Assembly (NCBI GenBank): GCA_001938485.1
Contig: MQRK01217052.1
Span: forward strand, 1-64,000
Reading direction: 5' to 3'
Source: Girardia tigrina
Taxonomy: Eukaryota
DNA: 64,000 nt
This document shows, piece after piece, positions 28,510 through 63,720 of this stretch (the stretch's first letter is position 1; each line of letters starts with the position of its first letter). The notes beneath the pieces are model-generated. The model made no database searches, was not told the origin of the DNA, and saw only the letters and a list, made by a program, of their open reading frames with translations. The position numbers were made by a program, and so were the translations under genes.

Positions 28510-28820
28510 ATATGAGCATAAATGATTTTAAGATTTTGTGCAGCCATTTTAAAAATTATTGGTAGAGAGTGTCGTGTGAAGGATTGTTGATAAGATCATG
28601 TGATCCTAAAATCAATGTTCAAACAGCACTCTCAACTAATTTGTTAAGATTTTCTGATTAGACTTACGTAAGTGATTGCACAATCATTCATTTATTATAT
28701 AGAAGCAATAAAAAAGAACATAATCAGTGATCTGATGATGACGGTTAAACCGTCGAAATATATTATCATAAAATATATTTTTAAATGGAGTTTATTTGTT
28801 TATAATAAAAATTGCCATCT
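28510..28820 (+). mobile_element. Penelope-like element 3' end / pseudo-LTR
   Basis: FKILCSHFKNYW*RVSCEGLLIRSCDPKINVQ...* is a GIY-YIG C-terminal tail homologous to 56200-56330 and 46660-46780; a hammerhead follows. Confidence 0.8.
28727..28769 (+). ncRNA. Minimal type I hammerhead ribozyme (intact core)
   Basis: GTGAT-CTGATGA-T-GACGG-TTAAA-CCGTC-GAAA-TATA-TT-ATCAT: stem I, CUGANGA, perfect 5-bp stem II, GAAA, palindromic minimal stem III, NUH site. Confidence 0.88.
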
Positions 28821-28829
28821 TTTTACAAG

Positions 28830-29560
28830 TTAATTATTTTAAAATTATTTAGTTCAAAGGGCACTTTTTTGATTGGATGTCTCATTTTGCACATTTGAGC
28901 TTTATAAAATATATCTTCCACAATTAATGTCAAATACTACTATTGGTTTTACAAATAACTTGAGTAGATATTTTAATTTGCCTTTATTTGCAGTTTTGTT
29001 GATAAAAATCTTTTCTAAATTTAGTTATTTCGGGATTCTACCCGTTTGATTTGGATAAAAAATGTTATTCGATTGTCAGTAATCGGTATTATATTCTTTT
29101 TCTAAAAAAATCTCACGTGTTTTATTATTTTCTGTTTTATGTCTTCTTATTTCATTTCGTAATTTTGTTTTTTACATCAAAAATATTGAATTTTGTTTGT
29201 GAAAAAACCTCTCAATAACCAGAACAAAAAAATATGAGTGCATTTCATGAGCACATAAAATATAATTATGTTACTCTTTTTAAGAGATATAAAAGAAATA
29301 AAAATAAAAAAACACACCGTTTGTATAACATTTTTTTCATTTTTGTGACTATTAATTTCGACGGTATAACGGCTATCGTCAGGTCTCAAGAAAAAGTGAA
29401 TTTAAAATCTGCTCATATAGGCAAGCAGTGATTGCATAATCAATGTGTTGTTGAATCATCTAAACACGCTCAATAGGGTTTTCGAGAGACTCGTTTGCAT
29501 ACTAATCTTAGAATTCTCAGGTTTCGTCTCCTGACTTAAAATTATTTGTTTAAATTTTGA
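28830..29560 (-). mobile_element. Penelope-like remnant (pseudo-LTR plus downstream sequence)
   Basis: ORF tail ...KISMQTSLSKTLLSVFR* resembles the other PLE C-termini; 29340-29485 is an inverted homologue of 32113-32250. Confidence 0.65.
29345..29387 (-). ncRNA. Hammerhead ribozyme with damaged stem II
   Basis: GAGAC-CTGACGA-T-AGCCG-TTATA-CCGTC-GAAA-TTAA-TA-GTCAC; both core boxes intact. Confidence 0.7.
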
Positions 29561-29899
29561 AAACCCTTTTGAGTTAGGAGCGGCGATGTATCGTTTAATG
29601 ATGCATCGACAGACTGCATCGTTAACAATGCATCGAAAATCCTTCATCGTTAAATGATGCATCAAAAGCCTGCATCGTTAAACAATGCATCAGAAAAATA
29701 ACATTTAAATATAAAGCAGCTAAATTAAAATCTAAATTTTTATTTTGTGATTGATATTTGCTATTGTGCTACATTAATGGTAAAGAAAATTTACAAAAAA
29801 GAAAACAAGAAAATTTCAAATTTATTTTTGGAAAATTGAATCAAACTATAAAAGGCACATTATTCCTTTTCTTCATCTGTCTTAAGTTCTCTTTTATAT

Positions 29900-30370
29900 T
29901 ATTAAGAACACCAATTTGACTTTTTATATTTTTATTTAAACAACAACTTTGATTGTCCTTAAGACAATCTTTGTCAAAACTTTCGTACATTTGCATTCTA
30001 AGCGCAATTGATTAATGAATTAATTCTCATTATTTTTTTAGCAAATGGGGAAATAAATATTTTATTAAAATATTTATTCAAAAGTTATTGGATAATAATT
30101 AAAATGATTATTAATTATTTAAAAATATTAATTTGATTTATTTATTAAATAATATAAAAATTAATTAACTTATTTAAAATTTTAAAATTATTTTAATTTC
30201 AAATAATTTTAAAATTTTAAAATGATTTGAAATTAAAAATAAATTTAAACATTACATATTTTTAGATAATAAAAATTAAAATATTAATCATCCATCTGGG
30301 TAGGAGAGACATTTCCAAATCAACATACACATTCAAACGCAAAACATCAAACATTTAAATATTTCTCCCA
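29900..30370 (-). mobile_element. Solo LTR inserted in the hAT ORF
   Basis: TGGGAGAAATATTT...GTTCTTAATA with 5-bp TSD TATAT (29895-29899 / 30371-30375). Removing it restores the hAT frame KLVYI|KENLRQ. Confidence 0.9.
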
Positions 30371-31586
30371 TATATAAACCAGTTTTTAAACTTTGGATGC
30401 TGACAAATTTGTTCTTCTCTCACCACATATATTTCCAGCTGTGGAAAACACTCGTTCAGAGCTGGAGGAAGCTGTTGGAATCGCCAATAGTCTCTTTGCA
30501 AAGCGAACAAGTTTCGGATAATTAAGTGCTTGATTTTTCCAGTAACGAAGTATGTCACCATTATCGGCAATCGCTGTTGTTGTTAAATAGTTTTCTAATT
30601 CCGCCTTGATTTCCGCCATCAAGGAAGTCACTACTTCCAGGTTATCTACCACTTTTCCAAAAGTTTCAACCTTCAAACTGATGGAAGACCTTCTTATGTA
30701 TGCAGTTGTTGTGCTTTTTAGTGGCTGTGTGTGTTAGTGGCTTGTTGTATGTCATCAAGAGAGGATTGTGATGTGTGGGGTGAGGGGGTGTTCTTAAGTT
30801 CGGCCTTGCACATGTTGAGCACAGCTTCTTACAGGGATACTTTTGACATGTGGTACCTTTGCCCAATGTCATGTAATGTTGGTCCTTTGTAACGTGGATC
30901 CAACATGTTTGCATATGCGTATTCTAAAACTTGAGCTCCATTTTCAAGAAATCTGTCATTCATTTCTAACAAGTAATGATCAACGACTTCTTTCATCATG
31001 GGATTGGGTGAATTATGTGATATTGACTGCAATTCGTCTTCCAGATCAAAGAGCTTCAGAATGATATGGACTATAGAGACCTTGTTCTCTGCACTTGCAT
31101 GGTGGGAGAGTTCTTCAAATATTTCAACAGTTGTTCAATTGTTCAATCTCCTCTTCATCTGGTAGTTTGTTGACTAGATTTTGCGAAACATCTTTTCTGC
31201 AACAATATTGATGGCAGGCGGTAGCTCATTGATAGAATGTAATTGATAAAGGTCACTGTTCAATCTGGTTGATCAACTTTGAACTATTTTGGTAATTGTG
31301 ATATCTGGATTTTTTGATTCTTCGGCAATAAGTGAATCCTCAAACTCCTGAGAATGATTGAAGAAGCTAACCAGCCCTGTCATCTTATCACTTAAATCTC
31401 TAATTTTAAATTTTTGGCATCTGGAAGAAAAACAATTTAATTTAACTAGAAATAAAACTTCATTAAATATTATTTAAACAAATAATATTATGACTTGGAA
31501 ATTGTTTTATAATATAATTTTTTTAAGATCAAAATAAATTTTTTTCTAGTAAATTTCATCACTGAATATTGTAAAAACTAATATAT

Positions 31587-31840
31587 AAACTAGTAAATTA
31601 GTATGTAATGTTTATGTAAGTATTAAACAAATCTGAAATAATAATAATTTGTTAATATTAAAATAAAATTTCATTGCTTTAAATATAAAAAAAATAAATA
31701 TAAATATTTATCATAAATTAAATTTATTATGAGAAATTATAAACAAACTAGTAAATTAGTCTGTAATGTTTATAAAAGTATTAAACAAATCTGAAATAAT
31801 ATTAATGTATTAATTTTAAAATAAAATATCATTGCTTTAG
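31587..31840. repeat. Direct duplication of ~95 bp inside the hAT
   Basis: AAACTAGTAAATTAGT...CATTGCTTTA at 31587 and 31745. Confidence 0.85.
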
Positions 31841-32202
31841 GAACAAATGAAAATATAACTTTCCTTAAAAAAGGAATAAATGAAAACTACTGAAAATAGA
31901 ATTGTACTCTAAAGTTCCTCGAAAATATTTGTTTAAAAAACTAAAATTGTAGTAATTATATTGTTGAGTTATTGTTTATGTGAACAAAAGTGTGATTTCA
32001 TTATATGTTAGATAACAAAGATATGCAGTCTTTCGATGCATCGTTTAACGATGAAGGTTTTTCGATGCATCGACCATATTTAACGAAGTACGATACGATG
32101 TGTCGCTCCCTACTTTTGAAGGCTTTTAGATGACATAACAAAACATTGATGATATAATCTCTCCTTGCCTATATAAGTCAATTTAAAATACATTTTTTTC
32201 TT

Positions 32203-32245
32203 GGGACTAGACGATGACGGTTATACTGTTGAACTAAATTGTCCT
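32203..32245 (+). ncRNA. Decayed hammerhead ribozyme in a Penelope pseudo-LTR
   Basis: GGGAC-TAGACGA-T-GACGG-TTATA-CTGTT-GAAC-TAAA-TT-GTCCT; both core boxes mutated. Confidence 0.55.
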
Positions 32246-32795
32246 TAAAATAATTCTGTTTTACAAGTGGCGTGTTTTGACATATAAGCATAATTTTCCA
32301 TTATTCTTTAATTTTATAAATAGAAAAATAGTGTTCCATTATCGAAATTCTCTCAAAAAATACATGAAATGAGTACATACATAATAATTGATAAATTATT
32401 TAGTCTGATTCTTTGTCATTGACTTCAACCATTGAAAAGCTTGCCTCAAAATTAGATCTCTTCTTCATATGATCTTCTGTTATATCAAGTTTGAGTTCAG
32501 TTATTACTTATGTTAATTACATCGAAAAGTGCTTTGAAAGAAGCTGAATTTAATTAGGACCCTTTCTTTTGACGGTATGAACAATTAATAATTTGTTCTC
32601 AAGTGTCATTCTTCTAATCTTTCTGTTATAATATATTTGGTTTTTTGTTAAGTTCTTATTGTGATCTAATTTCTTCTTCTAAAATTTTCATATTTAGTTA
32701 TTTACAAATCTGTGACCATACATTTATTACAAAAATTTAATACAATAGATGGAATCATTAACTCAAAGGAATGGAATTTGAATTTTATAAAATTT

Positions 32796-33154
32796 ACCGT
32801 AATTTTACGCATATAAGTCGCTCATTTTTCCAGTTTTTCTATGCCCTGAAAAAAGCCTGCGACTTATACACATGTAATATCTTGAACATATACTAAATAA
32901 ATAAATAAAAATTAGAAATACTTTACAAGTAAAATGACTCAATTTAGCATATTAATAATTCGTATAAATTTATATACAATTGTATTTTAGAAGATAAATT
33001 TAATAAATATTATGAATAAATAATTTTATTGAAATTAATTTAATTTTATGATATGTTTTTTTGAGCAATAACCTTTTTTAAAAAAAATAGATGCTAAAAA
33101 AAATAGATTTTAAAAAAAAATTTTAACTGTGACGTAATTGCGTAAAAAACGGTA
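32796..33154. mobile_element. Pogo-type MITE
   Basis: TACCGTAATTTTACGCATATAAGTC ... TGCGTAAAAAACGGTA inverted ends; TGCGACTTATAC subterminal motif. Confidence 0.7.
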
Positions 33155-34049
33155 AATTTGATTATTAAATTCAAAGTTTTGTAATCAATTTTTATTAATA
33201 CTTTCGGAAATGAATGTAATTTCAATTTATAAAACTGAAAAATTATAAATAAATATTTTTGTGTATTTTACAACTACATTTTTGTTTAATTCAAAAGATC
33301 TTTATTTTATATTTTTACAAAGTTTTTGTTTGCAGTTTTGTGAATAAAATGAAATTTTAAAACTTTTTTTAACATAAATGTTTTTAGCTAAAATCAATTC
33401 TTTTATTTTCTATAAATAAAATATACAATGTTTTAAAAATTTTAATAAATAATTTTATTTAACGCTTAAACATTTTTTTTAAATTCAGAAAATATAATTT
33501 ATTCGGTGAAAATTTAAAAAGAGAAATTGTTTCAATCAAATGATTGAAGTCAGTTTTCAATTAAAATATTAATTGAATATTTATTAACAGAAAATAAATT
33601 GGAAAAAATGTTAACTATTTAAAAAATATAAATAATTATGATCAAAATATTTTTTATTTTACAAACGAAATGTGTATATTTTTATTATTATAATAAATAT
33701 TGATCTTGGTTTAAAAATTTTGTACGATTTATGATAGATTTTTTATATAGAGTGATCTAAAAGACCCTAAATATTTTAAATGTATATTTTACCTTTATTA
33801 ATTACTTTTGGGAACAAATAATTTGTCTCAAATTGAATGGCATAATTCCAAATGAAATGATTAACAAATTGAAGAAGGATTAATTATTGAATAGCATAAA
33901 TCCAAAAGAATGGGTTAACCAATTTATTTAATAACAAATCCAAACCTTTTATTGACTTATAATTGTTTAATCAATTTAATTATTGTCATTTATACATTGC
34001 CATATTATAACAAATCACAATAAACCAAACTTAATTTTACGCAAGAACA

Positions 34050-34560
34050 CTTATTTTATAATTCTCTAGTGTACCTTTAAATATCTAAAAGCATCTTCAA
34101 GCTTTGTTGCTATTTTTTGAGAATAAGTTTCTTCAATAAGAATTTAAATATTTTGTTGTCTTTTTTCTACAAAAACATGATATTTTAAGCATCCTTAGAT
34201 AAAAAGTCTACATGTGACATCTAGTATTATAGCTGAAAAAAGGGATCACTCTTTCATATCTATTATTTTGGAAAGCTAATGTCTAAGAAATGCTGCATTT
34301 CCTTGGCATAATGTACTGAAGCTTTATAAGAATTTTTATAGTTAGCAGCATTAATTGTGTTGTCATCAAAAAAGAATGGTCCATACAATTTACTACTTGA
34401 AATTACTATTCAAACGTTCATCTTTAAATTTGTAAGACCTTGTGTCACATTTTTATATGTGTATGAGATAGATCCAACATGTACGAAAATTTATATATCC
34501 CGGTAATGGAATAGCTATCTTATCAGGGAACGTAATTTTGATCAAGATTTGTATCCTTAT
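34050..34560 (-). pseudogene. Decayed Tc1/mariner-superfamily (maT/rosa-like) transposase
   Basis: Minus-strand relics LYGPFFFDDNTINAANY, HYA...FLDISFP and DFL-like motifs, with many stops. Confidence 0.6.
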
Positions 34561-34581
34561 TAATAAGAGAACTCACACATT

Positions 34582-35017
34582 TGTTAGAATATTTATTACA
34601 TTCACTTTTTGAATCATCTCTATGACAAAACGTAACAATGCCTTCGTTTAAATTCATGAATCAATATTCAATACTTCTCATCCAACATCTGAACTAACTT
34701 GACCAGATATATTTTATTTAAAATATTTACTTTAAATGTTAGTGGTTAAAATAAAATTACTTTTTATTATCATTTAAAAATATTAATTCGATTTATTATT
34801 TACAAAAGTAAAATTAATAAAATCATTTAAAATTTATAATCATAATCAAATTAAAAATTTGAAAATTAAATCTAAATTTAAATAAATTAGTTTCTTATTA
34901 TAAGAATCAAAATATTAATCATCCATCTGATTAGGAGAGGCACAATCCCAAATCAACACACAACATTGAAACATTCAAATAACACACAAAACATCAAAAT
35001 TCCAAATATTCCTCACA
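34582..35017 (-). mobile_element. Solo LTR (TGTGAGGAAT family)
   Basis: TGTGAGGAATATTTGG start, CTCCTAATCAGATGG box, ends ~TTCTAACA. Confidence 0.75.
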
Positions 35018-35103
35018 TAAATAAAATGTATTAAGCACCGTTTCAGATGAAACCACTCTTTTTGCTAAATTGTTTCTTCATATTTCCTACAAGATTTTGT
35101 ATT

Positions 35104-35632
35104 TGTAAGGAAATTTTATTTTATTTGACAATCTTCTAATGCTGATCTGAACAATATCATCACTCGGTAATACCTTTTCAATTTCTACGTTGCTTTCTTA
35201 CTTTTTACTCAATCGTTCATATTAACAACATCACAATTTGAATGTAAACATTTATTTCAAACACAAACAGATTCTTCACAAAAAAATTGAGTGTATTCAA
35301 ATGTAAAAATCAATTAATGAAGAAATTATATAATAACTTTTAATTTCTCAAAATTTTATTGGATAAAAAGGCATTAAGTAATTTTTAAAATAAACATTAA
35401 TTTTTAAAATATATTAAATTTAATAAGATACAATCGTTTACTAAAAATATTATTAAAATTTATAATTATAAAACTTTAATTAATTAGTATTTAAAAATTA
35501 ATATCATTAAATTAATTTCATTAGATTCAAATAATCAATCAAATAACATATCAATCCCATCTGAGTAGGAGAGTCACAAATCTAAACAGCATACAAACAA
35601 CAAACTTACAACATTCCGAATTTTCCTTCACA
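35104..35632 (-). mobile_element. Solo LTR (TGTGAAGGAAA subfamily)
   Basis: Terminal inverted TGTGAAGGAAA / TTTCCTTACA; first 80 bp near-identical to 9490-9571. Confidence 0.7.
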
Positions 35633-37110
35633 GTTCCTATTTTAATTAATCATTTATAGTTATTATTTCTTTAAATTTTTGAAAGGTATTTAGCAAAGTA
35701 TTATTGATGATTTGTTTCCAATCATTGTTTTCAGTAAATCTCATTTTACTAATCCGGAGAATTCTTTTTTCCTATACATAATAATTCCTTCAACACATTT
35801 TGCTGTTGGATACATTTTTAAAATAGTACAAACAAAAAAACAGTAAATAAACAAAAAAATTAACACTTAAAAAATGATATATTAACTATTAATGTGTGTA
35901 TTTTGTGTATTTTTGATAATAAAAGATGCAAAATACATTTAAAATACTTAAGGGACTTTTGGATCGTCTGATATAATTTCATGAGTTTGTAGAAAAATAA
36001 TCTTTGAAGAATAATCATAGAAAGACCTATAATAACAAAATAGAAAGAACACCATAGACAATTGAAGAAGAACTGCGGATTAACGTTTAGACTTGATAAT
36101 ATTATATAAATAAATAATTAAATAAATAACATTTTGTAATTTACGAAAATTTTATTTTTGTTTTTTTTAAACTTATTTTCTATTTTTCTTTATTATTTTA
36201 CAAAATTAAGTTTTACATTTCAATGTAAATAATTTCAAAAGAAAATCTGCATTTATTATTATAAAAGAATTTTTCTACTCCTTCTTCAATAATTTTTTTT
36301 TAATTTTATATTTGTTAATTTAATGCATAATTATGTAAATAAATAATAACACAAATATCTGAATATATTTGAAGTTTTTTTAGCAATTAGAAGGAAAAGA
36401 GAAGGAAGGACTTCTAATCAGGACTGGAAAGGGGATAAAGGTTATTCATGCAGAAATTATATAAATTAATCTAACCGTAATTGGATGGTTTGTACAAAAT
36501 ACCTCCAAGATTGAGGTTGATTCTTACTTATGGAATTAAGTTAATAATTAGATTTTTAACTTGGGAGAATATTCAATTGATAATTTGCTCGAAATTATAA
36601 TTATGAATCCTGTTGCCTTGAATTTGTCAAATATTTTCTTGACGTTTTTCGTCTAAGAAATATCAAAATGTCCAATTATTATGACAAAATATTCTTTTTT
36701 TGTGATTTCTGTTTCACTTCTCTAAAGCTTCAGTTTTAGTTTTTTTTATTTCTTTTACAACTTTTATCAATATATTTATCAAACATTTTTTTATGTTACA
36801 AAATTAATAATATAATGTATCATAAATTTCTATAGAAACATAGAAAGTTCAAGGAGATAATAACTGTGATTCTAATTATTATTTACTGTAATACCTCTCA
36901 ACTCATCACATGTTATTTGTTTCAAATTTTCTGTGATCGATACTGTTATCCATTTAATATCAAATAACAAATTCCGATTATATGATTTATTTACTATAAC
37001 ACAATATCAATAATCTCGACTATTTAATGGAGAAAATAGTGATGTTATAATGACTCAAATTTTCAAAGCCTTTTCATTGGTTTACACTCTCAAACAAACA
37101 TATACTATCA

Positions 37111-42999: not shown

Positions 43000-43000
43000 T

Positions 43001-43666: not shown

Positions 43667-44530
43667 ACAACAACTATTATAATTTAATATTTGAAAGTAT
43701 TATAAAAAATTATTTTTTTAAATTTGTTAGTGTTATAAAAAAGTTATTTTTAAGGGAATAATTTTGTGATTTATTTTAATTATTTAAGATAATATTGGAT
43801 AATAATAGAAAAAGGTTTTTTAAATTGAAGTTAAAGATTTTAAAATTTGAAACGTGTGACATTTTGAATTTTTAAAAATAAATTTCTAAAATAGAATGTC
43901 AAATAAATATATATATATATATATTAAAAAGCAAGTTTTGAAAGATTAAGTATTAAAAAAAATTTTTTGCATTATTTCTAAGTCAAAATAATACATAATT
44001 TATGTATCGAATGTCGACGGTTCTATATTTTAATCAAAGCAAAGTCTAAGTATTATATATCCTTTAATACTTTATAAATTTTTAGAAATTATTATTATCA
44101 GAATAATAAAGTGTACTCGAATAACAAATTCTCAAACGTGAAAGCCAAAAAGCGCTATATTATTTTTTCTGTTTTACAAATCGAAACGTTTAATTCCCAA
44201 GATAATTCTCCTCTTTCGTCTCAAATCATTTCAAAATAATTTTATATATTTTTTCTTTGGTGATTCGTCTTTTATATTTCTTTCTATTTATTTGTATTTG
44301 ATTATTTGGATTCAATTATTAAATATTTTAAAATTTTGTTTTAAAAATCTAATAACAATATAGAATAAATAAATTAAGTTTCTTTAAATCAAATGGCAAT
44401 TTCGTCATTAAACAAAAAATAACACCATTTTAATTTTAAATTTTTATTCGAAAACATGTTTCGCCACTTTTGTGGCATCTTCATTTCTGTATTTAATTAG
44501 AAAGTTATTGTTTATATAGAAAGATGACCA

Positions 44531-44572
44531 TTACGTCACTGTGTTACGTCAAAATACTCTAATATGATTGGA
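44531..44572. promoter_or_regulatory. Putative promoter: two TTACGTCA (CRE/ATF-like) sites and an inverted CCAAT box
   Basis: TTACGTCA at 44532 and 44544; GATTGG at ~44566; minus-strand ATG nearby at ~44484. Confidence 0.3.
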
Positions 44573-44865
44573 CAAAATATAAAATATTTTAAAAATTAAA
44601 AAAAACCTTAGCGACAATATTTAGTCAACCGTGAAATTTAGTGTTATTAAAGCTTATACAAGGGAAGTTGATATTTAGACCTTTATAAATGCATTTTTTC
44701 AATGTTATGCGATTAATAAACAATTGTGTAAATGCACTTCTTTCATTTTAGAATAACGGTTATACAAAAAAATTAAAAAAACGTTTTTTGTGAGTATTTA
44801 AAATTTTTTTCTGTTAACTTTATATGATTTCCTTTAATTTACGTCATAAATTCTAGACAATAATT

Positions 44866-45593: not shown

Positions 45594-46499
45594 TTATTGA
45601 AAAATATTTAAAAATTAGAGGATTTTTTTAATTCTTTAAATTAACATTTTAGTGAAGGTTAAAAAATCTTTCGGGTACCCTTCTATAATGATTTTTTCTA
45701 TTTTTAGAAAATAGATGTTTAAGTTTGACTTTAGAATTTTTTTTATTTTGATAATTTATTATTTAATAATTTTATATTATTTTTTTTAATTATCATTTAT
45801 CATTTTAGATCTGCTTGGAGTTTAGATCAAAGGAAAATGTTTTACTATATCAATGTAAAAATATATTATGGCAATAGAAATCATGTTATAATATAAAAAA
45901 TTTAATTGTTCAGTTTTCAACAACGAAAAATAATATTGTACTAAATAAAGCTACCACTATATAAAACGCTTCACGTTTATTTGATTCGATTTTTCAGATT
46001 TATTACTAGAATTGTCTGGAGCATGCGTTTGATCAGTAATATTCAGTACTGTCTCTAAGTTTCTCTCCTCAGTCTTCCGACACACTAACGTTTGACAAAT
46101 CTCCATGAAAAGGATCCATATTCTTTTCGCTTCTTACAACGATTTCTGTACCATTTATAAAGCATTTGTTCATTTCATTTGTGTCACTTAACAATGTTCG
46201 TTTCGTTCAAAATTAATTTGTTTGTTTGTAGTTATTTAAAACAGATTTATTTTTCCATTCATAAAAAATAATTTAAATATTAAAAATTTATACATTTTTT
46301 AATATTTATATTATTTTTTTAAAATATTTTTAGTAATAACGAATTAATAATAAAAAATCAACAGATTTTCAAAAACATTTAAATTTATTTTAGCACATCT
46401 GTCGTTGCGTGCATTTTTCGTGCACGCATTTGTCGGGTCCCATTTGCTCGTATCTAAACTGCGTACGAATATTATGTTTGTTCAAACAATATCAATTTT

Positions 46500-46930
46500 C
46501 ATAAATAATAACATCATTGAAAAAACTGAATTTTATTCCTTCAAAAAAAATATTTTGGTAGTTTTTTCACCATCATCAGGCTTAATTAATAATCTTGTAA
46601 CAATTAAAATGATGATTATATAATCAAGTGATACAATAACTAATAAAATAATTTTAACAAAGTTAAGAGGCACTTGTTTGGGCATTAATTGATGAATTAT
46701 GTAATTTAATCAATAATGCTTCTCAAGAAACTCTTTCCCAATAATTTTTAAAATTACTGCACAATATTTTAAAATCAGTAATTTTCATATCCGATCTAAA
46801 AACTTCCATAAGCCTAGCAATCTTACTGCCATTTTCTAATCATTTGTGCTCCTGAATCTACAGATATGATGAGACATCTCTCCAATGTATGGAGCATTCA
46901 TTACAAGAAAACTGATTGCAAGAATAAAAT
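46500..46930 (-). mobile_element. Penelope-like GIY-YIG remnant plus pseudo-LTR
   Basis: QFSCNEC..YIGE motif and DFKILCSNFKNYWERVS*EALLIK...IN; homologous to 56195-56440. Confidence 0.8.
46546..46582 (-). ncRNA. Decayed hammerhead ribozyme
   Basis: AGC-CTGATGA-T-GGTGA-AAAAA-CTACC-AAAA-TATT; positional homologue of 56400 with GAAA changed to AAAA. Confidence 0.6.
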
Positions 46931-47479
46931 TTAGTTTTGTCAATAATGTTATTATTTGTGAAAATAAACATTTGATATTGTTTTTTACCTTTTTAATATC
47001 AATTTTATTTGTCATTCAAAATTTACTGTTTTTTTTTGTTCAAATTTATTTTTGGGCCAACACTTTCGAGGGTTGACAAAATTGGGGACATAAAAATATA
47101 TATAATTTTTTTAAAAAATACAAAAGAAAAATTGGATATCAAATTCCTCTGGGCGACATTAAATAAATCAATTTAAAATTTAAAGCTTAGTATATATTCA
47201 GGGCATTTAATTTTCGTATTGTATAGTCTGCTAGACGGAAAAAATGTCTAGTAAAAATATAGATAAAGTATAACAGCAGTTCTTCAAAAAGAAAAAATAG
47301 CGAATTTACTGTATTATTTACATGGATCGCTGATTTATTATCTGATAAATAATTAATTATTTTTGATTTTTATTTTTCTCGGCTTTTTTACAACTTCATT
47401 AAATTTTTCGTAATTGAAACCGAATGTTTAATTGATTTTTTTGATCAAATATTTTGTTTTTTTTATTTTTAAAAAATAT

Positions 47480-48480: not shown

Positions 48481-50962
48481 TCGTTCGCGTTTTCCATTTA
48501 GGGTATGAAACACAAATATTATCTGGAGATATGTTTTTATTTTTCTCATAAAATTATTGAATGTATTTTTATCATAAGATCAAACAATAATTGCTCAGCG
48601 AATCGAAAGGAAATTTTGAACCTTTTGGCAACGATTAATCAGAGATTATTCAGAAAACAATTATTCTTATTCTCTTTTACCGGAACAGTTCGATTGTGGA
48701 AAGAACTCACTGAGCAATTTTACTCATGATAATTTTAATTTTTTTTATCCCGATTTTCGATGGTCCGCGTGCAGGATCAGAAAGAAGCATTATCTTAATC
48801 ACGCAAATTGTCTTTTAAAGCGTCATTCGAAAATCAAATTCAAATTGAATGAAGATTAGTTTCAATACCAAAATGGCACGATAGTTCTTTCAAAAATGTT
48901 TTTGAGATCTCACTCCAAATTTGGTTTAATATGTGCAAAAGAAAATTCATTGAATTTTCTCTATTCGAGGTTTATTGTTGATAGGAAAATTGGTATAAAA
49001 TTGGAATTTTAATAAAACTGAACTGGAAAATAATCAATAAACAAATTGATTAATAATTAACAATATCTAATACCGTTTATGGCTTTTGTACAGACTTTTC
49101 AAAAATGAATAAATTTTTGTTAGTTACCCCGGTTATTTTTATTTTGTTTTATTTACACCTATTTTTTATTTTTTTTATAGTTAAACGTTAATAACTTGTT
49201 AATTCTTTTTTATTTACTAGTAAAAGTAAATATTCGACAATACTCGAATATTTATTTTTACAGTTAGTAACGTTTATATCGTTTTAGATATTAGAATAGG
49301 AATTAATCAAAATTTTTATTAGCACAAATTAATAATTTTTATTACAAACAAATTCAAACAAATTTTCAATTTCTTTTGCCGACATTTATCTTAATTTTCA
49401 AATTCTGATTACAGCTTTAGAAACTTAATATTTAAATTAATATGTAATTTAATTTTAATTTAATTTATTTTTAATTAAAAAAAACTTTTTTACAAAACAT
49501 TAAAATTCTTTTATTTTAAATTAATTAAATATTTTTCAAAAATAATATTTATTTTAAAGATTTAAGAAAATATATTATTTCACAGCAAATAAACATTAAT
49601 TATAGCTCTTCTTTATTATTTTCAAAAATTATAAACTTAAAAATATAGTATATTTCAATTATATAATGAAACTTGATTTAAAATTCAATTTAATTTTTAA
49701 TAATAAGTTTTCTTGTAATTTTAATCATTTCTGAATAATTAAAATTTATCAGCCAAAAAAATAAACAAACTTATCATAATTTTTAAAATACGTAAGATAT
49801 TTGATAAATAAAATATGATATTAAAATAAAAATTTAAATATAAATAAATATTTTTATTTATTCAATACAAACTAAAGACAAATTATTCAAACGGAAACTT
49901 ATGATTATTAATTTCACTGAATTATCTATATTATTTTTTCTAAGGATTAAAGTAATATAAAAAGTCATTATAAATAATTACAAATAAATGTTAACACTCA
50001 ACCCAAATTATTTTATCCCAAAAGTCAAAATTCCGAATCAATAATTTTCACTGATGGAGAAAAAAATTATTCATGTTTATAAAAATCTTTTTCAAATCCA
50101 AAATATAATCTTTAATCTGATAAAAACGTATTTGCTTCAGTGAGAGACAATAAAGTTAAATCTCCTTAAAAGGAACTTTATTATTAATTACATCCTCCTA
50201 GTTTCTTTGATATTATACATTATCCTCTTTTTTATTATACTACCTTGTTATTGTCATAACAATTTTAAAAATGTTTTAATAAGAGTTATTTTTTATTATT
50301 TTTAACTAATACTTTATTAAGTAAATAATAATTACAAACATGTTATATATTAAAAAGCTATTCGAGTTAAAACTATTTTCATAGTTATAACAGAAGAAAT
50401 TTTACGGTTGTTTGATTTAAATAATTTTGTTTTTAAGTGATCGTTTTTACGTGAATTTGATATACCTTGATTTAAAAAGTTTTATAAAAAACAATTTTTA
50501 CCAAGAAAAAATATTTATTTGTTTTTTTGTTTAAGAAAGTGGTTCCCCCAAAAAAGGGAATCTCTTTAATTTTTTAGAATAATGTTTCACTTTTGATTGT
50601 GTTTTCGTTTTAAATAAACATATATTCTTTCATATTAGTAGAGATTCACAAAACTGCCCTTCGTAATGTGGATCAAATCCCATTCGTAGAACAAAAAACT
50701 CACGTTCGAAATTGATGAGATTCTATCCTTACAACATAGCCAATGGTCAAGAACCTTACTCGATCAACTCATTTGCGAGTGCCCACTAATCCAGGTTTTG
50801 AGATGACGATTTGTCTCTCCGATGTACGAGTTTTGATACCCGTGACAATTAAATTTATAAACCATATTAGCTTGCAATCCACAAACTGTTTTCGATTTAT
50901 TTGAGAGAACACTACAACCCATCAATTAGCATTCAAAATTGGCAAAGGAAGGCCATTTCAAT

Positions 50963-51024
<62 letters not shown>

Positions 51025-52270: not shown

Positions 52271-52892
52271 TGAATTGACATTTAGACTATCTAATTCTAC
52301 AACAACCTGATGTTTATTGTGCTAATAAATGTTCCTTATTACTTTGTATTTATTAATTTATTTTGTTTATGGAAAATATCCACTCGATTTCATTCTTCCT
52401 TACAATATATATGTGTGCGTTTTACGGCAAATATGTTTAAAGAGAAACATAAAATGTCTGCAAAGTTGATCAAAAATATTAAATACCGTACCCCTCTTTT
52501 GAAAAAAATGTTATAAAAGAATCTTAAAATAGTTATTTAACGGAATATAATTGGTTTCCCGATCTGTTTAATAATCTTTGCAAATCGAATTATTAATTCA
52601 GCAATTATTTAATAATTTTTACAATCAATTAATCTTTTTTTAATTTACTAATTATTTAAATTAATTTATGTAAAAAAAACTTAAAACCTTATTTCAAACA
52701 ATCATATTACATAAATAACAAAATAAAGATTTACAAAATCCCAAAGAAATAAAAGATTTTTTAAGAATATTTATTCAAGAGTTATTTCTCTATTGGAAAA
52801 AAATAGAAAACGCAGCATTTTTCGATAAAAGAATGAACAGTGTTCTTCATAACTCGAATTTACCCCTCATTTAGTTTCTAAGTTGTTGTTTA

Positions 52893-54215
52893 TATTAGGT
52901 TGGTCGAAAAATAATGGCGGTTTTTGAGCTTTATACTTTGTTTATCTACTTTGATATGTATATAAGTTTAAATGCATTAGTGTTAGATATTATTTGAAAT
53001 CTTANNNNNNNNNNNNNNNNNNNNNNNNNNNNNNNNNNNNNNNNNNNNNNNNNNGTATATTCCTATAGCCATTATTAACATATTGCTGTTATTTTTTAGA
53101 ATATTTACGGTGCTAAATTAATAATGGAAAAAAATTAAAATTCGAGCAATTTTCTTGTACGAATTTAAACTGGTTCGTAAAGCAGCAGAAACGGCTCTCA
53201 ATATCAATAAAGCGTTTGGCTAGGAAACAGCTTCTGAGCGCACAGTGCAACGATGGTTCCGAAAATTTTCTGATGGAGATGAAAACCTTGAAGATGAAGA
53301 AGGTCGTGGTCGTTCGGTTGCTGTGAACAACGACAATTTGAGGATAATGGTGGAAACAGATCCCCGTACAACAATCAGAGAACTTGCAGATGGGTTGGGC
53401 ATTAGTCATTCAACAGTCCTGGATCATTTAAAACAACTTATAAAAAACAAGAAACTTGATAAATGGGTTCCTCATGATTTGTATGAAAAAAAAGAACCGA
53501 CGCGATGAAATTTGTTCTGCCAATCATCTTCGCAATAAAAACGATCCATTTCATGATCGTATTATTACCTGTAATGAGAAATGGATCCTGTATGATAACC
53601 GACGTCGATCTGCACAGTGGTTGGACAAAGATGAACTACCGAAACACTTTCCAAAACCGAAACTAACACCCCGTAAGGTTATGGTGACAGTTTGGTGGTG
53701 TGATGCTAGAATCATCCACTATAGTTTCTTGAATTTAGGTGAAACAATCACAGTGGATAGGTACTGTCATAAAATTGATAAAATGCATAACAAATTGAAA
53801 ACCCTTTGTCCGGGATTGGTCAATCGAAAAAGTCCCATCCTTCTTCATGATAACACTCATATTTCAAAAGTGACTCTTCAAAAGCTTAATGAGTTGGGCT
53901 ATGAAACCCTGCTTCATCCACCATATTCACCAGATCTCTCGTCAACGGACTTCTACTTTTTCAAGCATTTGTATAACTTCCTACGTGAAAAAATTTTCAA
54001 AAACCAAAATGATGCTCAAAATGCCTTCCAAGAATTTGTCGCTTCGAGAACCGATGCATTTTATGCTGATGGAATAAAACAACTTGTTTCTCGTTGGCAA
54101 AAATGTATTGATGCCAACGGTTCATACTTTGATTAATAAACTTTTGTTTCTGTGAATTTGCACGTCTTTGAAGTTTGTGTCCCAAAACCGCGATTATTTT
54201 TCGACCAACCTAATA
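52893..54215 (+). mobile_element. Mariner (Hsmar1-like), second copy of the 15382 family, pseudogenised
   Basis: Same TIRs with TA; WVPHDL, HDN, HPPYSPDL, RWQKCIDANGSYFD. Frameshifts present, and the first catalytic D is changed to N (TCNEKW). Confidence 0.97.
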
Positions 54216-56194: not shown

Positions 56195-57200
56195 AAATAA
56201 AATATTGTGCAGTAATTTAAAAAATTATTGGGAAAGAGTTACTTGTGAGGCATTATTGATTAAATCACTTAATCCGTCCATTAATGTTCAAACAAGTCTC
56301 TCTTCCAATTTGTTGAAAATATTTAATTAGTTATTACGCAAGATGTTTGCATAATCATCAATTTGCTATAGATGAGACAGCGAAGTTGTTGTTAATTCAG
56401 CCTGAAGATGGTGGAAAATCCACCGAAATATATTGCAATAAAATTTGAGTTTAATGACGTTCTTAATAATAATAACATTGTTATAAAAATTATAAATTCT
56501 TGTGAGACGTCTGAAGTTTTTTTTATACATTGCATTATCGCCAAAATCCAATTCCAGCATCCTATATCATCATAGGATTTTTACACGAAAAATTTACTCA
56601 AATAACTAATTCTTCACAGACAATATATGGAAATTTCTTTATTGCATGTATTCAAACAAGAACTAAGTGAACTGTTTAATTTAATATTGTGATTTGAATC
56701 ATTAAAGTAATATTTATTTTGGTTATTTCTTCATTACGGACTATACTCTCATTCAATTGCAGTTCTTCTTTTACCTTCTTCTGTTCAGAGTTTTATTAAC
56801 TAAGATAATTGTAAAAGTACAATAAATCTATGTAATCGTTTGCACGGCAATCTGTTCAATTAAAAAATAAGCAAGAATATTGTGTGTTTAAAAGCATTTT
56901 ATCGTTTGCATTATTGAAAAAAATTTTAATTTTTAATAATTTATAACTTTTATACAGTCCTTGAATTACCATTTAATGTCACGGGGTTAAATCGAAGAAT
57001 TGACGTTTATCATGATAAAAAGTTATCTTCATGTATTCTTCGTGGCTTTATTAATTAGAAAAATGATTGAGCTCTTCAAAGGAACAAATGTTGAATTTAA
57101 ACGAATGGTAGATTTTGAATGAGTGAATTTAGAAGTAAAATTAATTTTTTAACTAAATGAAGCCGATATTTGATTACTTAAAATGATCAATTAATTACTG
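56195..57200 (+). mobile_element. Penelope-like remnant: GIY-YIG tail, pseudo-LTR, probable decayed ORF start
   Basis: KILCSNLKNYWERVTCEALLIKSLNPSINVQTSLSSNLLKIFN*, then a hammerhead; the 3' boundary is approximate. Confidence 0.75.
56400..56436 (+). ncRNA. Minimal type I hammerhead ribozyme (intact core, 2-bp stem I)
   Basis: GC-CTGAAGA-T-GGTGG-AAAAT-CCACC-GAAA-TATA-TT-GC. Confidence 0.82.
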
Positions 57201-57274
57201 GTGAAAAATTTAAGTCTTATTTTAATATATTATCGAAACCTGTTCTTTATATTTTTTCTGACTGCTCTTTAGAC

Positions 57275-57605
57275 CAGTGTTTCTCAACCGGTGTGTCGCG
57301 ATTAGATCGGCAGTGTGTCGCGATGAATTGGTGTGTCGCAGGTGTGTTGCGAAAATAAATCTAAACACGGTTAGGGTTATGGTTATTTTAAAAAAATACA
57401 TTTTTTATAAAAATTACATTGAGCATTTAGAATGTTAATTTTATTTGTTTCAAAAAATTCGCAACATGATATAAATAAATCAATTTCATAAGTATAAAAA
57501 TTTGTTATTATTTCGATAAAGAAATACCTTTTCATTTGTGGTGTGTCGCGAAAATTTAACGGTCATTTAAGTGTGTCACTAACTCAAAAACGTTGAGAAA
57601 CACTG
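57275..57605. mobile_element. hAT (Charlie/Buster-type) MITE
   Basis: TIR CAGTGTTTCTCAAC / GTTGAGAAACACTG; perfect 8-bp TSD CTTTAGAC; GTGTGTCGCG subterminal repeats. Confidence 0.96.
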
Positions 57606-57684
57606 CTTTAGACAATCGATATTCGTTGCTCTTACCAGTGCTCTTTGATGTTTTCGTTCATTATTTGTGGCCCTAATTGTCAAG

Positions 57685-57729
<45 letters not shown>

Positions 57730-57779
57730 NNNNNNNNNNNNNNNNNNNNNNNNNNNNNNNNNNNNNNNNNNNNNNNNNN

Positions 57780-57825
<46 letters not shown>

Positions 57826-57827
<2 letters not shown>

Positions 57828-58068
57828 AATAATTTTGTTAAACCTTTTTTAAAAAAATTACTTACATGTTTCGGAATTCATTTTCCATCATCAAAAATTA
57901 TGGTATAATGTGTAAGATAATTAATTTTAAAAATAATATTTACTGATAAAATCTCCCATTAATAAACATTTATTATCTTACATATTGAAATTGCAGACGA
58001 TTGAAAAAGAATTCCGAAACATGTGCAATAAACAATTTTTTAAAAAAGGCTTTAACAAAATTTCTTTT
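57826..58068. repeat. Inverted repeat with ~60-bp arms (foldback/MITE-like)
   Basis: ATTTTGTTAAACCTTTTTTAAAAAA..ACATGTTTCGGAATTC versus GAATTCCGAAACATGT..TTTTTTAAAAAAGGCTTTAACAAAAT. Confidence 0.8.
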
Positions 58069-60415
58069 TTAAAAATATGAAATTAGCGTTCACAAGAGTC
58101 AATAATATTATAAATTAAATTGAAGAAGTATTTTTGTGATCTTCTTAATGCCGATCTAAAAGAAACAAATTTTCTTGATTGACAATTGTCACGATTTATC
58201 TTTTTGATTGTAGAAAATTTGACAGAAACATATGCCTTAAAATATGAACTAAACAATAGGGATTGTCATGATCTTTGAAATAATGAAAGCATGGATCATG
58301 CACCACAAATATCTAAGTCATTATGGCTTTTCTATATAGTAACATAGGGGCTACCCAAACAAAATGAGATGAAATTTTGGGGTACACAATAATTTTATGA
58401 ATATTCTTGACTTAACAAAATGTTTTCATTGAGAATCAGTTTTAAATGAACAAGAATAATAATTATAATATTTAAAAAATGAATACAATAAAAATGTATT
58501 TGAAAAAATATGGTATAATAATATATAAAGAAACGATAAATAGAAATGGATTTTTTATTTTATTTTATTATTATTTATATTAAAAATCGTTTCAAATTAG
58601 TAAAATAATCATTCTGTCTTTTTAAAATTAAATAAACAAAATAAAACGTTCAAAGATTTTTATTTCAATTAAAAAATTAAATCAATTTTATTTAGTTTTC
58701 AATTAAATATTTTTCCGAAACTAAAATTATGTAAAAAATTAATTCATCAACTAAAATTAATAATATTATGATTTTATTAATTATCAATAAATGATTCATT
58801 TGCATCACTGATATTTTGATTTTACAATTATTACAGGCATTATTTTGTGAAATGAAAATATATAAATTTATCAATTTAAATGTCAAAAATATAATAAAAC
58901 ATGAATAATAAAATTTTTAATTTATCAAATAAAATGAATTATTTATTTTCGAAATTATATTTTCTTTCACAGTTTATTAGAAATTTCTAATTTTTTTCGA
59001 AAACATATTTTAAAACAATTAATAAGTAAAACGTTTTTCAAGTAATTATTTTTAATTAATCCTTTGTAATAAAAAATAAGATTTAATTAAACAAAATTCT
59101 GACTAGTTAAAATTCAGCCGAAATATATTTAATAATAACTTTTTTATAAAATTTTTGCCGCTTTAATATTTTATTTTGTATCATTACATTTTTAAAAATT
59201 CAAAAAATTAAATAAAATCTGAAAAAAATATTCAAAATTATTATAAATTATTAATAAAAAATTTATAAAAATAAAAATTATGCTTTTCTTATAAAAATTG
59301 TCTAACAAAAAAATGATACTTTTTCTTTTATACTTTTCTTTTGTAAAAGAAAAAGATCAATTAATTAATTATATCTCTCTTTCCAAAGAAATGTATTTAG
59401 AAATCGTATACGAATATAAACGTATTGGGTGTGGATAGACCTTTCTGAGTAACCATTGTACTTATGTCAAATAATATAAAAAGGTTAAAAACAGTGTTAG
59501 GATGAGAGTGTAAAACTATTGAGTAGATGGAGTGTAAACATTAAGATTGAATTGAAGTAGTTTCAAAAAAAGGAATGATAAGTATTAGTGAAACTAATAA
59601 CGGAAGGAATAATAAAAAGATATTTAGATCACAGAAAGAGAAGAAATCATTTAAAGAGAAGGTCTTGAATACAACTAACAGTGTCAAAAATTTACTTTAT
59701 ATCCGATGAAATGTATATGAATGTCTTGAATGTATCAGAGCACGAAGTATATTTAATTGAAGATTTGTAATTGTCTTGATAATGTAGAATCAAATGAAGC
59801 GTGAGTTCTGGCGATTTGAATTAATGGGATTAATCGAATTATAATGAGATTCTTTATTTTAAATGGAAGGCAATCGTTGCCGTAGTGTTTGATTGTCTTC
59901 ATAAAAATGATTCTGGAGAAATTATTAAAGTATATACTAATTAGATTGATATATACGATTTACAGTATAAATAATGTATTAGATGTCCATGTTGTCGAGT
60001 AAGTTGGGTTTTAATTTTTATATTAATTTTAATGATTTTGTTAAATTTTTATAATCGCTTAAAATATTTAAATTATTTATTATATTTTATTATATCGGTC
60101 ATCCTACAAGAAGTAACTGCTAAATGTATGGTTCTCTAGTTGGGACTCGTCAACATATGTATATACATATAATATAAATAAATGTAAATATAATTAAGAC
60201 TAATATAAATATGAATATGGATATAAATATGGTTGAAAAAATATTTATATGAAAATAACCAGGTAAACCATTGTCATTAAACAGGATAATGTATTGTAAT
60301 TTCTTTTACAAAGATTTAGCTAAACCTAAAAAATGTAAAGTATTTATTGGTAAGGTTATAAGTTTTATAACAGTCAGAGAGAGTGAGTTTCATTATTTAT
60401 ATGTTCAAGTAGTCC

Positions 60416-60837
60416 CAGCGGCGTAGCCAGGATTGCAGAGGGGGGTGGAAGAAAATTCCTGAAAGATCTAGCAATCTTAAATATAATTGGGGTGGCTAAT
60501 TATGTTTTATTTTTTTCAGGGGTGGGGGTGTCTCCCGATTTTAACCCTCTAAACTTAAACGGTCCTTAAGCTCCTTAAACGTTCCTCGGACCTCCTTTTT
60601 CTCCCCGATTAAAATCCAATCAAGAGTTTCTATATTAATCTTTGTTTTCAGCCTCGCCAGTAGGACCGAAAACGTGGATTAAAATGGGAACGTCCAATTG
60701 TATTTTAATTGGGGGAACAACGAGAGGTCCCGTTCCTCTAAGTTTTGTTTTTCGTAATAATTTTTTTAAACAATTTTTAGGGCATTTTATCAGGGGGGTG
60801 AAAATCCACCCAATCATCCCCCCTGGCTACGCGCCTG
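60416..60837. mobile_element. hAT (Tip100-like) non-autonomous element
   Basis: TIR CAGCGGCGTAGCCAGG / CCTGGCTACGCGCCTG; perfect 8-bp TSD AGTAGTCC. Confidence 0.93.
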
Positions 60838-61628
60838 AGTAGTCCTAATTGTACTATAATTTGACGTTTGTACTAACTAAACACAATCGACTATCCAATT
60901 ACTTTTTAAATTATTATTTTTCTTTAAAAAGTTTTAGATAAAAATGTATATGCTTAAAATTTAAAAAAAAATACTTATTTTATTAAAATTAGTTAATGCG
61001 AAAAAAATATTTATAAAAAACGAATAAAATAAAAAATCTAATTTTCATCAATAAATCTTTGAGAAACGAAAGATTTTCATATGATTCTACTTGTTAAAAC
61101 AAATTAATTTTTTTCTGAATGTAAAAAAAAGAACATATGTTTTTTTCTATCTTCACTTATTAGAAAATTTAATAATAAACTTAATTTTTTTAATATTTTA
61201 TATGTTGTTAAGCAGGATATCCTTTATCTATTGTTTTCTGAAGCTCCATTCAATCATTTTATTCACAGTTTTGTTGTATATCAGTAATAAAATTTTTCAT
61301 TTCGTTGGGGTCCTAATATCATGGCATAATTGACAATTAATAAACGCAGTAATTTTGGATTTTTTGTCCATATAATCTCTATTTCAATGTTGACTCGCAA
61401 TTTTTATGTGATTTTTTAGTTAAAATTTTATAACATCTTTCTTACAAATTTGGTTTTCTACTTTTTGAGGTTTTATAAAAATAAGTCTTCTCTATATATT
61501 TTATTCAGTCTTATCGAAGCTTATTTCATAAATATTATTTTTCAATAAATAAATATATAGAGAGTCTTGAAAGGTAATTTGATATTTTTGAAAAATAATT
61601 TCGTTGAAACCTTTATAGGAAATTGATT

Positions 61629-61670
61629 ATTGTACATATTTTGGAAATTTTTTTTTCTATCATCAAGAAT
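61629..61670 (-). ncRNA. Heavily decayed hammerhead relic in a pseudo-LTR of the 63270 Penelope family
   Basis: ATTC-TTGATGA-T-AGAAA-(A)n-TTTCC-AAAA-TATG-TA-CAAT; upstream 61730-61790 matches the sequence after the PLE stop at 63575-63625. Confidence 0.4.
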
Positions 61671-61849
61671 TATATTTGTTAGTCACTTTTTCATAAAGTT
61701 ATTTTAAAAGGAAAAAATTTTTTATTCAATTTAAGATATTATTGGATAATAATGTCAAAATGTAGTAAAAATTTTAGTTAAATATTTTTAAAGTATATTT
61801 TTTTGCCTTACAAAAGATGTGCTATGCAAAGCTATAAGTATACTCAGGC

Positions 61850-62800
61850 GGACACAGAAAGAAGGTCGATATAAGAATCAGATATTTGTATATGATAGTG
61901 TCCCACGTGAAGATTTGGCTTGACCGACAAGATTCATTGTCTGATCAAGGAATTCCATGAGATTTATTGCCTCTGTGGGTGATTGTGTCTTTCTCATGGA
62001 AAGATGTTTCAAGTAGGGATGTGTGATGGGACTTTGTCTTTTTAAATTGGTCTTCGATGAATTTATAAAACGCCGATACTGAAGGAATTCGAGGGAAGAA
62101 TTACCCTGATTGACAAGCATGGCGACAAAATTCAAGTCAATAGAAGTCAATAAAATCTATGCGGATGATTTATGTATCATAGACTCTGGTATTGATTGAG
62201 CCTGTAAAAACTTGGATAAACTTAGAAACACATTTTCAGAATTCTGTTTCACTATTAGTGCCTCTAAAACTAATGACTCGAGAACTAGAATGTGACTAGG
62301 ACAAGTGATGTGCGGTGGTTTCGTTGAGGAATAAGGAAGTTACGAGAACTGCAATCTGCGATTCAAAGTAACTGAGTTCTTAAAGCACTGAAAAGAAAAC
62401 TAATCGAATTAAATATTTTTCCGACAGTTTATGATGGAAGTTGGTGCTGGGCAACATCTGACAAAAGGTAGCCCGGCTTCAAGCTTTTCATAATAACTGC
62501 ACTCTTGGTTAAACTAAACGTGGCAGAATACGAAATACGGATATGTCAATTGGTTTGACAGAGGCAAGTGTAGTACTAATTAAACACCGAATTGTATTCT
62601 TTGAGTACAATAGTCGGAAAAGTGTGCGTGAGGTAAAAAGAGTATTGAACTCTAAAATTGCCTCAGAAAATAGATAAGTCAGCAACTGTAAAAAGCCGTT
62701 GATGAAAGAGAATATTGCCCGCAATATGCTGTGATTATATGGTGACGAAGAAAATCTCATCGAACACTAGGAATGCTTGAATGAGAGAGAAATTATCGAC
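61850..62800 (+). pseudogene. Non-LTR retrotransposon reverse transcriptase relic
   Basis: YDSVPR, (Q)GCVMG.CLF and KIYADDLCII motifs in the expected order, with stops and frameshifts. Confidence 0.85.
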
Positions 62801-63199
62801 ACTGATTTCGATTGTATTGAGTTTTGCGAATTTAAAAACGAACTATTATTATCAAACGTTTATGTACGTGTGATGAGTTGTGTCGAGCGAATTGCGATTT
62901 CTATTTAAAAATATTTTTTATTAAAACGGTTTCTAAATTCATTTGACTTGAATTGTTCGTGAACCGAATTTTAATTTATACTTAAAAAGAATAAAATACA
63001 TCTTGTATTCTGATTTTATATTGAGAAAATGAATTATATTTGGTTGTAAATTCTGAAAGATTATCTGTCTGAACAATATAATTAAACAATGGACTTTATA
63101 ACCGAACTTCTATCTCTCGAACCACTGCCTGCTCCTGCTATCACCGAAAGATCCTCTGGGTAACTCAGGAATCGGCTGGGACAGATATTATTGAATAAT

Positions 63200-63586
63200 T
63201 TTAATAAATTGTTTTTAAAATTTATTTTAAAAATTATAAATTTTAATCGAAAACAATCTGTGAATTGCAAGCTAATCTGGTTGATAAATTGAATTGTCAC
63301 GGATGTAATAACTATTACATTGGTGAAACAAATCGTCATCTCAAAATCCAGTTTATTGAGCATTCTTAATCGACTCGATCGAGTAAGAATTTTTATCATT
63401 GGTTACATTGTAAAAATAGAATCTCTTCTGTTTCCAGGGTTGTGTTTTTTTGTTTTACAGAAGGGCTTTGATTCATAATATGATGAGCAGGTTTGTTTAT
63501 CATTATTGATAAGACACTTCAACCCGTTCATAAACATTCAAGATGAACAAAGTAAAGTTGTATCAAATTTTAAAATCTTTAAATAA
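63200..63586 (+). mobile_element. Penelope-like GIY-YIG endonuclease relic
   Basis: NCHGCNNYYIGETNRHLKIQFIEH ... LLIRHFNPFINIQ...FKIFK*. Confidence 0.88.
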
Positions 63587-63720
63587 AATATTTTAAATAT
63601 TTTGTCATTATTATCCAATAATATATTATATAAATAATGATTATTTATTTAATATAAGATATTATTGGACAATAATGACAAAAGGTTTAAGACATTTTTA
63701 TTAAAGATTTTAAGATTATT
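63565..63720. repeat. Inverted duplication of the Penelope 3' end
   Basis: AAATCTTTAA...TTTTGTCATTATTATCCAATAAT versus ATTATTGGACAATAATGACAAAA...TTAAAGATTTT. Confidence 0.8.

Follow-up and report, generated by a model that had tools for sequence, protein, structure and literature searches.

Hammerhead motifs on a Girardia tigrina contig as the probable 3' ends of 5'-truncated Penelope-like elements

The DNA analysed here is a stretch of 64,000 nucleotides of Girardia tigrina (positions 1 to 64,000 of contig MQRK01217052.1, assembly GCA_001938485.1), referred to below as the window. It has a GC content of 25%, is abundant in DNA transposon remnants and contains nine hammerhead ribozyme motifs. 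With high confidence we regard these motifs as the 3' ends of Penelope-like elements (PLEs) that are truncated at the 5' side, come from at least five protein-coding families and carry the known minimal type I hammerhead, and the extra U in the motif cores as the U of a predicted AUG start codon. Motif coordinates refer to position 3 of the hammerhead core. The family labels (A to H, K, M, N and O) are our own, and L-numbers denote the genomic loci fetched for comparison.

Insertion A, from the GACGG/TTAAA family, occupies 28442-28843 on the plus strand. A short inverted arm (28444-28501, -) is followed by an endonuclease tail (28503-28649) and then by the pseudo-long terminal repeat (pseudo-LTR), with an intact core at 28732, the AUG at 28738 and a long 3' end near +94, and by eye a 12-nt direct repeat (28442-28453 and 28832-28843) flanks the insertion. 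The open reading frame (ORF) start of this family is evident in L185-L189 and L194. Two further motifs belong to the GACGG/TTATA family. The left arm, B (29303-29515, -), has a degenerate hammerhead at 29382 and a short 3' end, and the right arm, C (32113-32325, +), has a degenerate hammerhead at 32207 and a long 3' end. A hAT DNA transposon remnant (29574-32112; PF05699 at 30389-30733, E 5e-16) lies between them; its terminal inverted repeats are at 29574 and 32112, and its target duplication of 8 nt matches at 7 positions. About 20 nt of arm C sit to the left of the hAT and the PLE sequence resumes across it. As the arms point apart, belong to one family and are continuous across the hAT, B and C appear to represent a single insertion that the transposon has divided into two arms, although their outer target duplication has decayed beyond recognition.

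The pseudo-LTR G (44374-44576, -) comes from a young PLE family and has the stem II GCCAC, C3 changed to A and a long 3' end. Insertion D (46484-46983, -) comprises an endonuclease remnant (46914-46666), a pseudo-LTR with a degenerate GGTGG-type hammerhead at 46579, 75% alike to E, and a short inverted arm (46916-46983, +). Insertion E (56198-56472, +) consists of an endonuclease tail and a pseudo-LTR with an intact core at 56402, an AUG at 56408 and a short 3' end near +65, and is 95-97% identical to its best genomic copies. At H (57823-58100) two pseudo-LTR ends of the GGAA family lie head to head, with degenerate hammerheads at 57894 (-) and 57994 (+); the left end is short and abuts (AT)n, and the right end is long. 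The GGAA lineage is also represented by the pseudo-LTR F (61589-61800, -), with a degenerate hammerhead at 61666, and by an endonuclease remnant with the start of a pseudo-LTR (63247-63717, +) in which a fold-back (63566-63717) replaces the hammerhead. Since B/C appear to be one insertion and H is one head-to-head pair, the nine motifs correspond to about seven insertions from at least five lineages. PLE remnants lacking a hammerhead are found elsewhere in the window as endonuclease pieces (19244-19381, +; 50633-50913, -). GGAA-family copies and many G-family copies stop directly at (AT)n, often at contig ends or gaps (57780-57823 in the window; L062-L090, L294, L295, L305, L306 and L310), which suggests insertion of PLEs into microsatellites or seeding of them.

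A first-pass annotation of positions 28510-63720 had listed six ribozymes. Motifs do lie within about 40 nt of each of its coordinates (28732+, 29382-, 32207+, 46579-, 56402+ and 61666-), but only two of the six have an intact core: A and E alone retain the full CUGANGA, GAAA and stem II, and B, C, D and F have changes in the core or stem II. Three further motifs had been overlooked, namely 44484- (G) and the two arms, 57894- and 57994+, of the palindrome 57816-58078 (H). The extra U after CUGANGA, claimed for all six, was confirmed and likewise follows the seventh core position in all nine motifs. Three stem II types had been distinguished, and several lineages are indeed present, but the type called GACGG lumped two families (28732 versus 29382 and 32207); about three or more Penelope lineages had been proposed, and at least five are present. 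The reported lack of a PLE reverse transcriptase (RT) also holds for 28510-63720, where a profile of 61 PLE proteins matches endonuclease pieces only. Outside this part the same profile gave a weak RT-thumb-like match at 7602-7943 (-, iE 0.02).

It is extremely improbable that most of these motifs are chance matches in very AT-rich DNA. The broken cores in four of the six, the Rfam scan of the window, which gave no hammerhead match at E<=1, and the folding of monomers, in which only two of four copies beat their own shuffles, would suit such an explanation, but monomer folding is uninformative for a ribozyme acting as a dimer. Profiles built from other genomic copies match all nine motifs and the partial inverted arm of A (10 profile hits), whereas they gave nothing at E<=0.1 on 10 shuffled windows and 0 hits on the reversed sequence. 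Moreover, first-look candidates in the genome number from hundreds to thousands for every motif type that was searched.

The genome searched comprises 1.43 Gb in 255,254 contigs. With 40 candidates scored per query, the first-look numbers are lower bounds: at least 1377 for E, 1320 for B, 1673 for H, 641 for G, 4277 for the GGAA-lineage remnant at 63380-63720 and 31,215 for an RT-piece query. Families A, C, D and F were placed by similarity and not by genome query. For the E, B/C, G and GGAA families, copies elsewhere in the genome have both RT and the GIY-YIG endonuclease joined to the same 3' ends as in the window; in family E the Pfam matches were RVT_1 (E 3e-12) and GIY-YIG (E 4e-4, beneath Pfam's cut-off). 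The architecture of endonuclease-containing (EN+) PLEs, a single ORF with RT followed by GIY-YIG, is found in these genomic copies and not inside the window. The pseudo-LTR repeats the ORF start, has partial tandem and inverted copies and carries a predicted minimal type I hammerhead, with core, helix II and a palindromic helix III (13 representative copies from 9 groups, some with copy-specific defects); an optional 30-40-nt tail and a target-site duplication complete the features of EN+ PLEs. Unit-length copies with two hammerheads 2.4-2.8 kb apart are present in L200 and L181.

The translations of family E, inspected by eye, contain DKG and an endonuclease CCHH and have no linker zinc finger. 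Judged by these residues, family E fits the Penelope/Poseidon clade as this is described in PMC8557442. In the contigs of one DNA sequencing run the depth, which is not a copy number, is far greater over the pseudo-LTR than over the ORF start. Most families have a TATATAA-like box, a likely candidate for a promoter element, some 30-40 nt 5' of the hammerhead core (L181-L200). In L287 a G-family short arm passes straight into B-family endonuclease-tail sequence, either as a nested insertion or as a family switch.

From A9 onward the motif reads AUG, and in eight families A9-U-G10.1 is the first in-frame AUG of the PLE ORF, which explains the extra U. In L130 the hammerhead AUG starts a reading frame that stays open for more than 210 codons and runs on into the PLE ORF. 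From 150 N-terminal protein matches, 20 loci were obtained whose alignments start within five residues, mostly at 47-60% identity. In every one of the 20 an in-frame ATG occurs where it is expected (18 exactly, 2 shifted by one codon), in 15 the strict core lies 6 nt upstream of it, and the loci form seven groups which include the A, B/C and E families of the window. Family G has the same AUG layout, with a stem II one base shorter and the other frame through GAAA, and the run-on into the ORF is genuine in L322 (181 codons open) and L328; L212 and L219, also considered for this family, were rejected because their shared downstream sequence is not the ORF. The N-terminal 150 aa gave no match when searched among longer proteins. 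This AUG is presumably the start that is actually used.

The hexamer of helix III is palindromic in 11 of the 13 representative copies, and their predicted cleavage site falls after +26 or +27 from the AUG. Cleavage would need a dimer formed through this palindrome, and since the predicted cut is within the ORF, it would remove the start codon from the ORF. The copies extend past the predicted cut, which indicates that their templates were uncleaved at the hammerhead site. In most families a hairpin is found 3' of the hammerhead. Its stem differs between families on both sides, and it is weak in groups O and H. The short 3' end falls in the hairpin loop and the long 3' end about 20 nt beyond the hairpin.

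Two origins had been proposed for the loci in the first-pass annotation, frequent 5'-truncated PLE insertion or non-autonomous retrozyme-like units of about 300 nt mobilised in trans, potentially through circular RNA. Truncated insertion is supported by the RT and GIY-YIG joined to the same ends elsewhere and by the copy boundaries. The 5' breakpoints vary from locus to locus, between 25 and 1166 nt upstream of the AUG with a median of 187, at 19 usable loci of 29 (7 were lost at contig or locus edges and 3 at gaps). The query for this set was a short 3' sequence, so that length was no selector, and copies selected by their RT likewise have staggered 5' ends. Same-strand hammerhead pairs number 15 in 240 loci and are 385-2764 nt apart, two of them under 450 nt. 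No array of three hammerheads was found in these 240 loci, where the fragmented assembly may under-represent arrays, and no tandem array overlaps a hammerhead in the window. The staggered 5' ends, together with the lack of short tandem arrays, therefore identify the copies as 5'-truncated PLEs and not as retrozymes. Their uniform size of about 300 nt does not define a unit and results from the fixed 3' end plus a short 5' truncation.

Spread of the loci as retrozyme-like units is accordingly considered very unlikely. The absence of RT from 28510-63720, the shortness of most copies (again the median of 187 nt) and the existence of RT-less deleted copies could be taken in its favour, as could the derivation of animal retrozymes from PLE pseudo-LTRs given in bioRxiv 10.64898/2026.07.22.740005. 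Non-LTR retrozymes (PMC7229834 and the same preprint) also share with the present copies a type I hammerhead and a short length, and common ancestry of retrozymes and PLE pseudo-LTRs is likely. Nevertheless, the copies studied here have no shared 5' end, no 150-450-bp head-to-tail arrays and no fixed monomer; they contain coding endonuclease sequence and extend beyond the cleavage site, and their hammerheads are minimal, in contrast to the canonical type described for retrozymes in PMC7229834.

Mobilisation in trans, rejected here for retrozyme units, is retained in a weaker form for other copies, namely RT-less ones with internal deletions. The junctions of these deletions mostly differ, but one deletion recurs in several segments within each of two loci, L130 and L136. 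This repetition, which can also be cited in favour of retrozyme-like spreading, suggests that deleted templates were sometimes copied in trans. Splicing was considered as the origin of those deletions which fuse the N-terminal region with the endonuclease, and was rejected as inspection by eye revealed no GT-AG and only short homologies. In family E, deletions with varied 5' breakpoints rejoin within a narrow stretch, at element positions of about 2079-2096, just before the endonuclease domain (L019/L122, L125, L128, L142, L145, L146, L160 and L166), leaving RT-less copies of about 1.1 kb without splice signals. This region looks like a template-jump hotspot.

Among 134 scored arms of family E the 3' ends fall into two clusters, which lie at about +59 to +71 and +82 to +105 relative to the AUG. 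In head-to-head copies these ends are not combined at random. All 24 distinct pairs of family E (after setting aside the duplicates L014, L011 and the second L113 row) have exactly one long arm, the other arm ending at +53 to +71 in 22 pairs and at +27 or +29 in two. L004, which is outside the search pattern, also has one long and one short arm, so that 25 of 25 pairs follow the rule against about half expected for independent ends (p about 2e-8, taking 55% of ends as long). The nine distinct pairs of family B comprise four clean long/short, two long/truncated, one ambiguous at a contig end, one complex and one long/long. One long and one short arm were found by eye in all four pairs of family G, and A, B/C and H of the window obey the same rule.

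Direct repeats of at least 10 nt flank 20 of the 24 distinct E pairs (median 13, mostly 11-14 nt) compared with 30 of 600 mismatched controls; for family B the figures are 5 of 8 pairs and 3 of 56 controls. Since target duplications flank the head-to-head pairs, both arms belong to one insertion. Minority variants are shared at 0.70 per 100 sites within an insertion and at 0.23 between insertions (family E, 19 rows including one duplicate), a difference reached in 0 of 2000 permutations in E and in 76 of 2000 in B (4 pairs). The inner junctions are mostly far from symmetric, with overlaps of 0-15 nt or short inserts (26 rows). In the 22 of 24 pairs whose arm lengths were resolved, the tail-less arm is the longer in 11, the tailed arm in 10, and in one they are equal. 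In L021, L024, L100, L115, L156 and L010 another type of inversion was noticed: here the sequence that is inverted originates immediately 5' of the breakpoint at the 5' side. This type resembles the 5' inversions of LINE-1.

These copies can be accounted for by priming of both strands of the cut target at two different sites on the PLE RNA, which the sequences make likely. The endonuclease would make staggered cuts, about 13 nt apart, in the two strands of AT-rich DNA, and RT would start 3' of the hammerhead, in the first part of the ORF, either in the loop of the conserved hairpin (about +66) or some 35 nt further (about +100). Of the two ends of one staggered cut, one would be primed at the first site and one at the second, probably with a single RNA serving both, a mode for which the term twin priming is in use, and for this reason every head-to-head insertion would have one tailed and one tail-less end. 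Synthesis would usually end after a few hundred bases, so that most copies are an endonuclease tail and a pseudo-LTR without RT. When both target ends are extended, the cDNAs would join at short homologies to give head-to-head copies; alternatively one of the two cDNAs would be lost. As the hammerhead core, within the same 110 nt as the two sites, carries the start codon, cleavage and translation of one RNA would be mutually exclusive. Taken as a whole, this two-site scheme with its exclusive fates of the RNA is favoured, with modest confidence. It is in keeping with PMC11167929, where both strands are cut and extended by a PLE protein, a predicted dimer, that starts at two internal sites bounding the tail, and where hammerhead cleavage is not needed in vitro.

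The second arm might instead arise when the first cDNA or an antisense template primes itself or folds back, with the tail difference produced by endonuclease resolution (PMC3846280, PMC8557442). This possibility, which we consider doubtful, accounts for the variants common to both arms, and near-symmetric inner junctions do exist in a few copies (L154, L029 and H of the window), as do local fold-backs (63566-63717). The likeness of the arms could also come from gene conversion after insertion. However, a longer arm cannot be copied from a shorter one, nor a tailed arm from a tail-less one. In 11 of 22 pairs it is the tail-less arm that has the more distant 5' end, so that in these pairs neither arm can be a fold-back copy of the other, and most inner junctions are asymmetric. 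Such pairs might still arise from a longer antisense template of which one end is trimmed, and later gene conversion might account for the variants in common. Two-site priming is thus preferred here. The formation of inverted and tandem structures by PLEs is named as an open question in PMC8557442, and the one-long-one-short rule, the common source of the arms and arm lengths that rule out plain fold-back together yield a precise prediction, which can be put to the published in vitro system.

Truncated PLEs that occur densely and carry minimal hammerheads have been known since 2014, and in this respect the loci are ordinary. The Penelope/Poseidon-clade PLEs of PMC4209133 have, as here, the extra nucleotide, opposite-strand pairs and truncated singles; they are families of another genome, and the results and discussion of that paper list the extra nucleotide without identifying it as part of a start codon. 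The start-codon reading would give a simple reason for a conserved nucleotide left unexplained in the 2014 paper and would tie ribozyme activity to translation control. A close counterpart is PAc, the Poseidon element of the lizard Anolis carolinensis (PMC11167929), in which the ORF begins at stem II, the cut lies about 26 nt 3' of the start codon, a 30-40-nt tail is bounded by two RT start sites, a stem-loop is found at the start site, targets are AT-rich and both strands are cut and extended. Its start sites are at 111-118, compared with about +66 and +100 in AU-rich sequence here, and its main text does not treat the pairing of sites within one insertion or the formation of inverted copies. 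The Penelope elements of Adineta vaga (PMC3846280) have inverted pseudo-LTRs with a tail on one inverted repeat, first codons in the pseudo-LTR, target duplications and microhomology deletions, as here. Their target duplications are 8-10 nt, against mostly 11-14 nt in our copies, and their copy number is far lower; antisense self-priming is favoured in that paper, and the arm lengths found here fit it poorly. In the literature searched, neither start-codon overlap nor twin priming of PLEs is stated as a rule in titles or abstract openings; older papers on Penelope structure and supplements may state them.

Several results weigh against the interpretation given above. The run-on into the ORF was not found in the copies searched for the GGAA (F/H) lineage. 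Among 120 distant PLE proteins the peptide mark expected of the AUG overlap occurs at residues 5-8 in 9, no more than in control windows; start-codon overlap may not be general, or the starts of distant PLEs may be called differently. The linkage to RT and GIY-YIG covers the E, B/C, G and GGAA families, family A being tied to the ORF start only, and no intact full-length ORF was present among the loci translated, which bears on present activity. The long/long pair of family B (L034) breaks the one-long-one-short rule. Finally, the hammerhead density of the window is about 2.5 times the sample mean, with 10 profile hits compared with 24 in 374,361 bases elsewhere (4.0 expected, Poisson p 0.008), the profiles having been built for the window's own families and the sample, forty 10-kb stretches of 18 long contigs, having been chosen among contigs with PLE hits and so not at random. 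As this sample is patchy, with 11 hits in 7 of the 40 stretches and none in 13 consecutive ones, the density of the window is high but not unusual.

Remnants of other transposons are also found in the window. Two mariner-type copies (15381-16640 and 52892-54215; PF01359 at 53444-54133) are 89% alike over 1.3 kb. A Pogo-like DDE_1 transposase remnant (1457-2839, +; PF03184 at 2180-2836) is adjoined by a Tc1-like remnant recognised by eye (2870-3933, -), and a short palindrome lies at 49214-49270.

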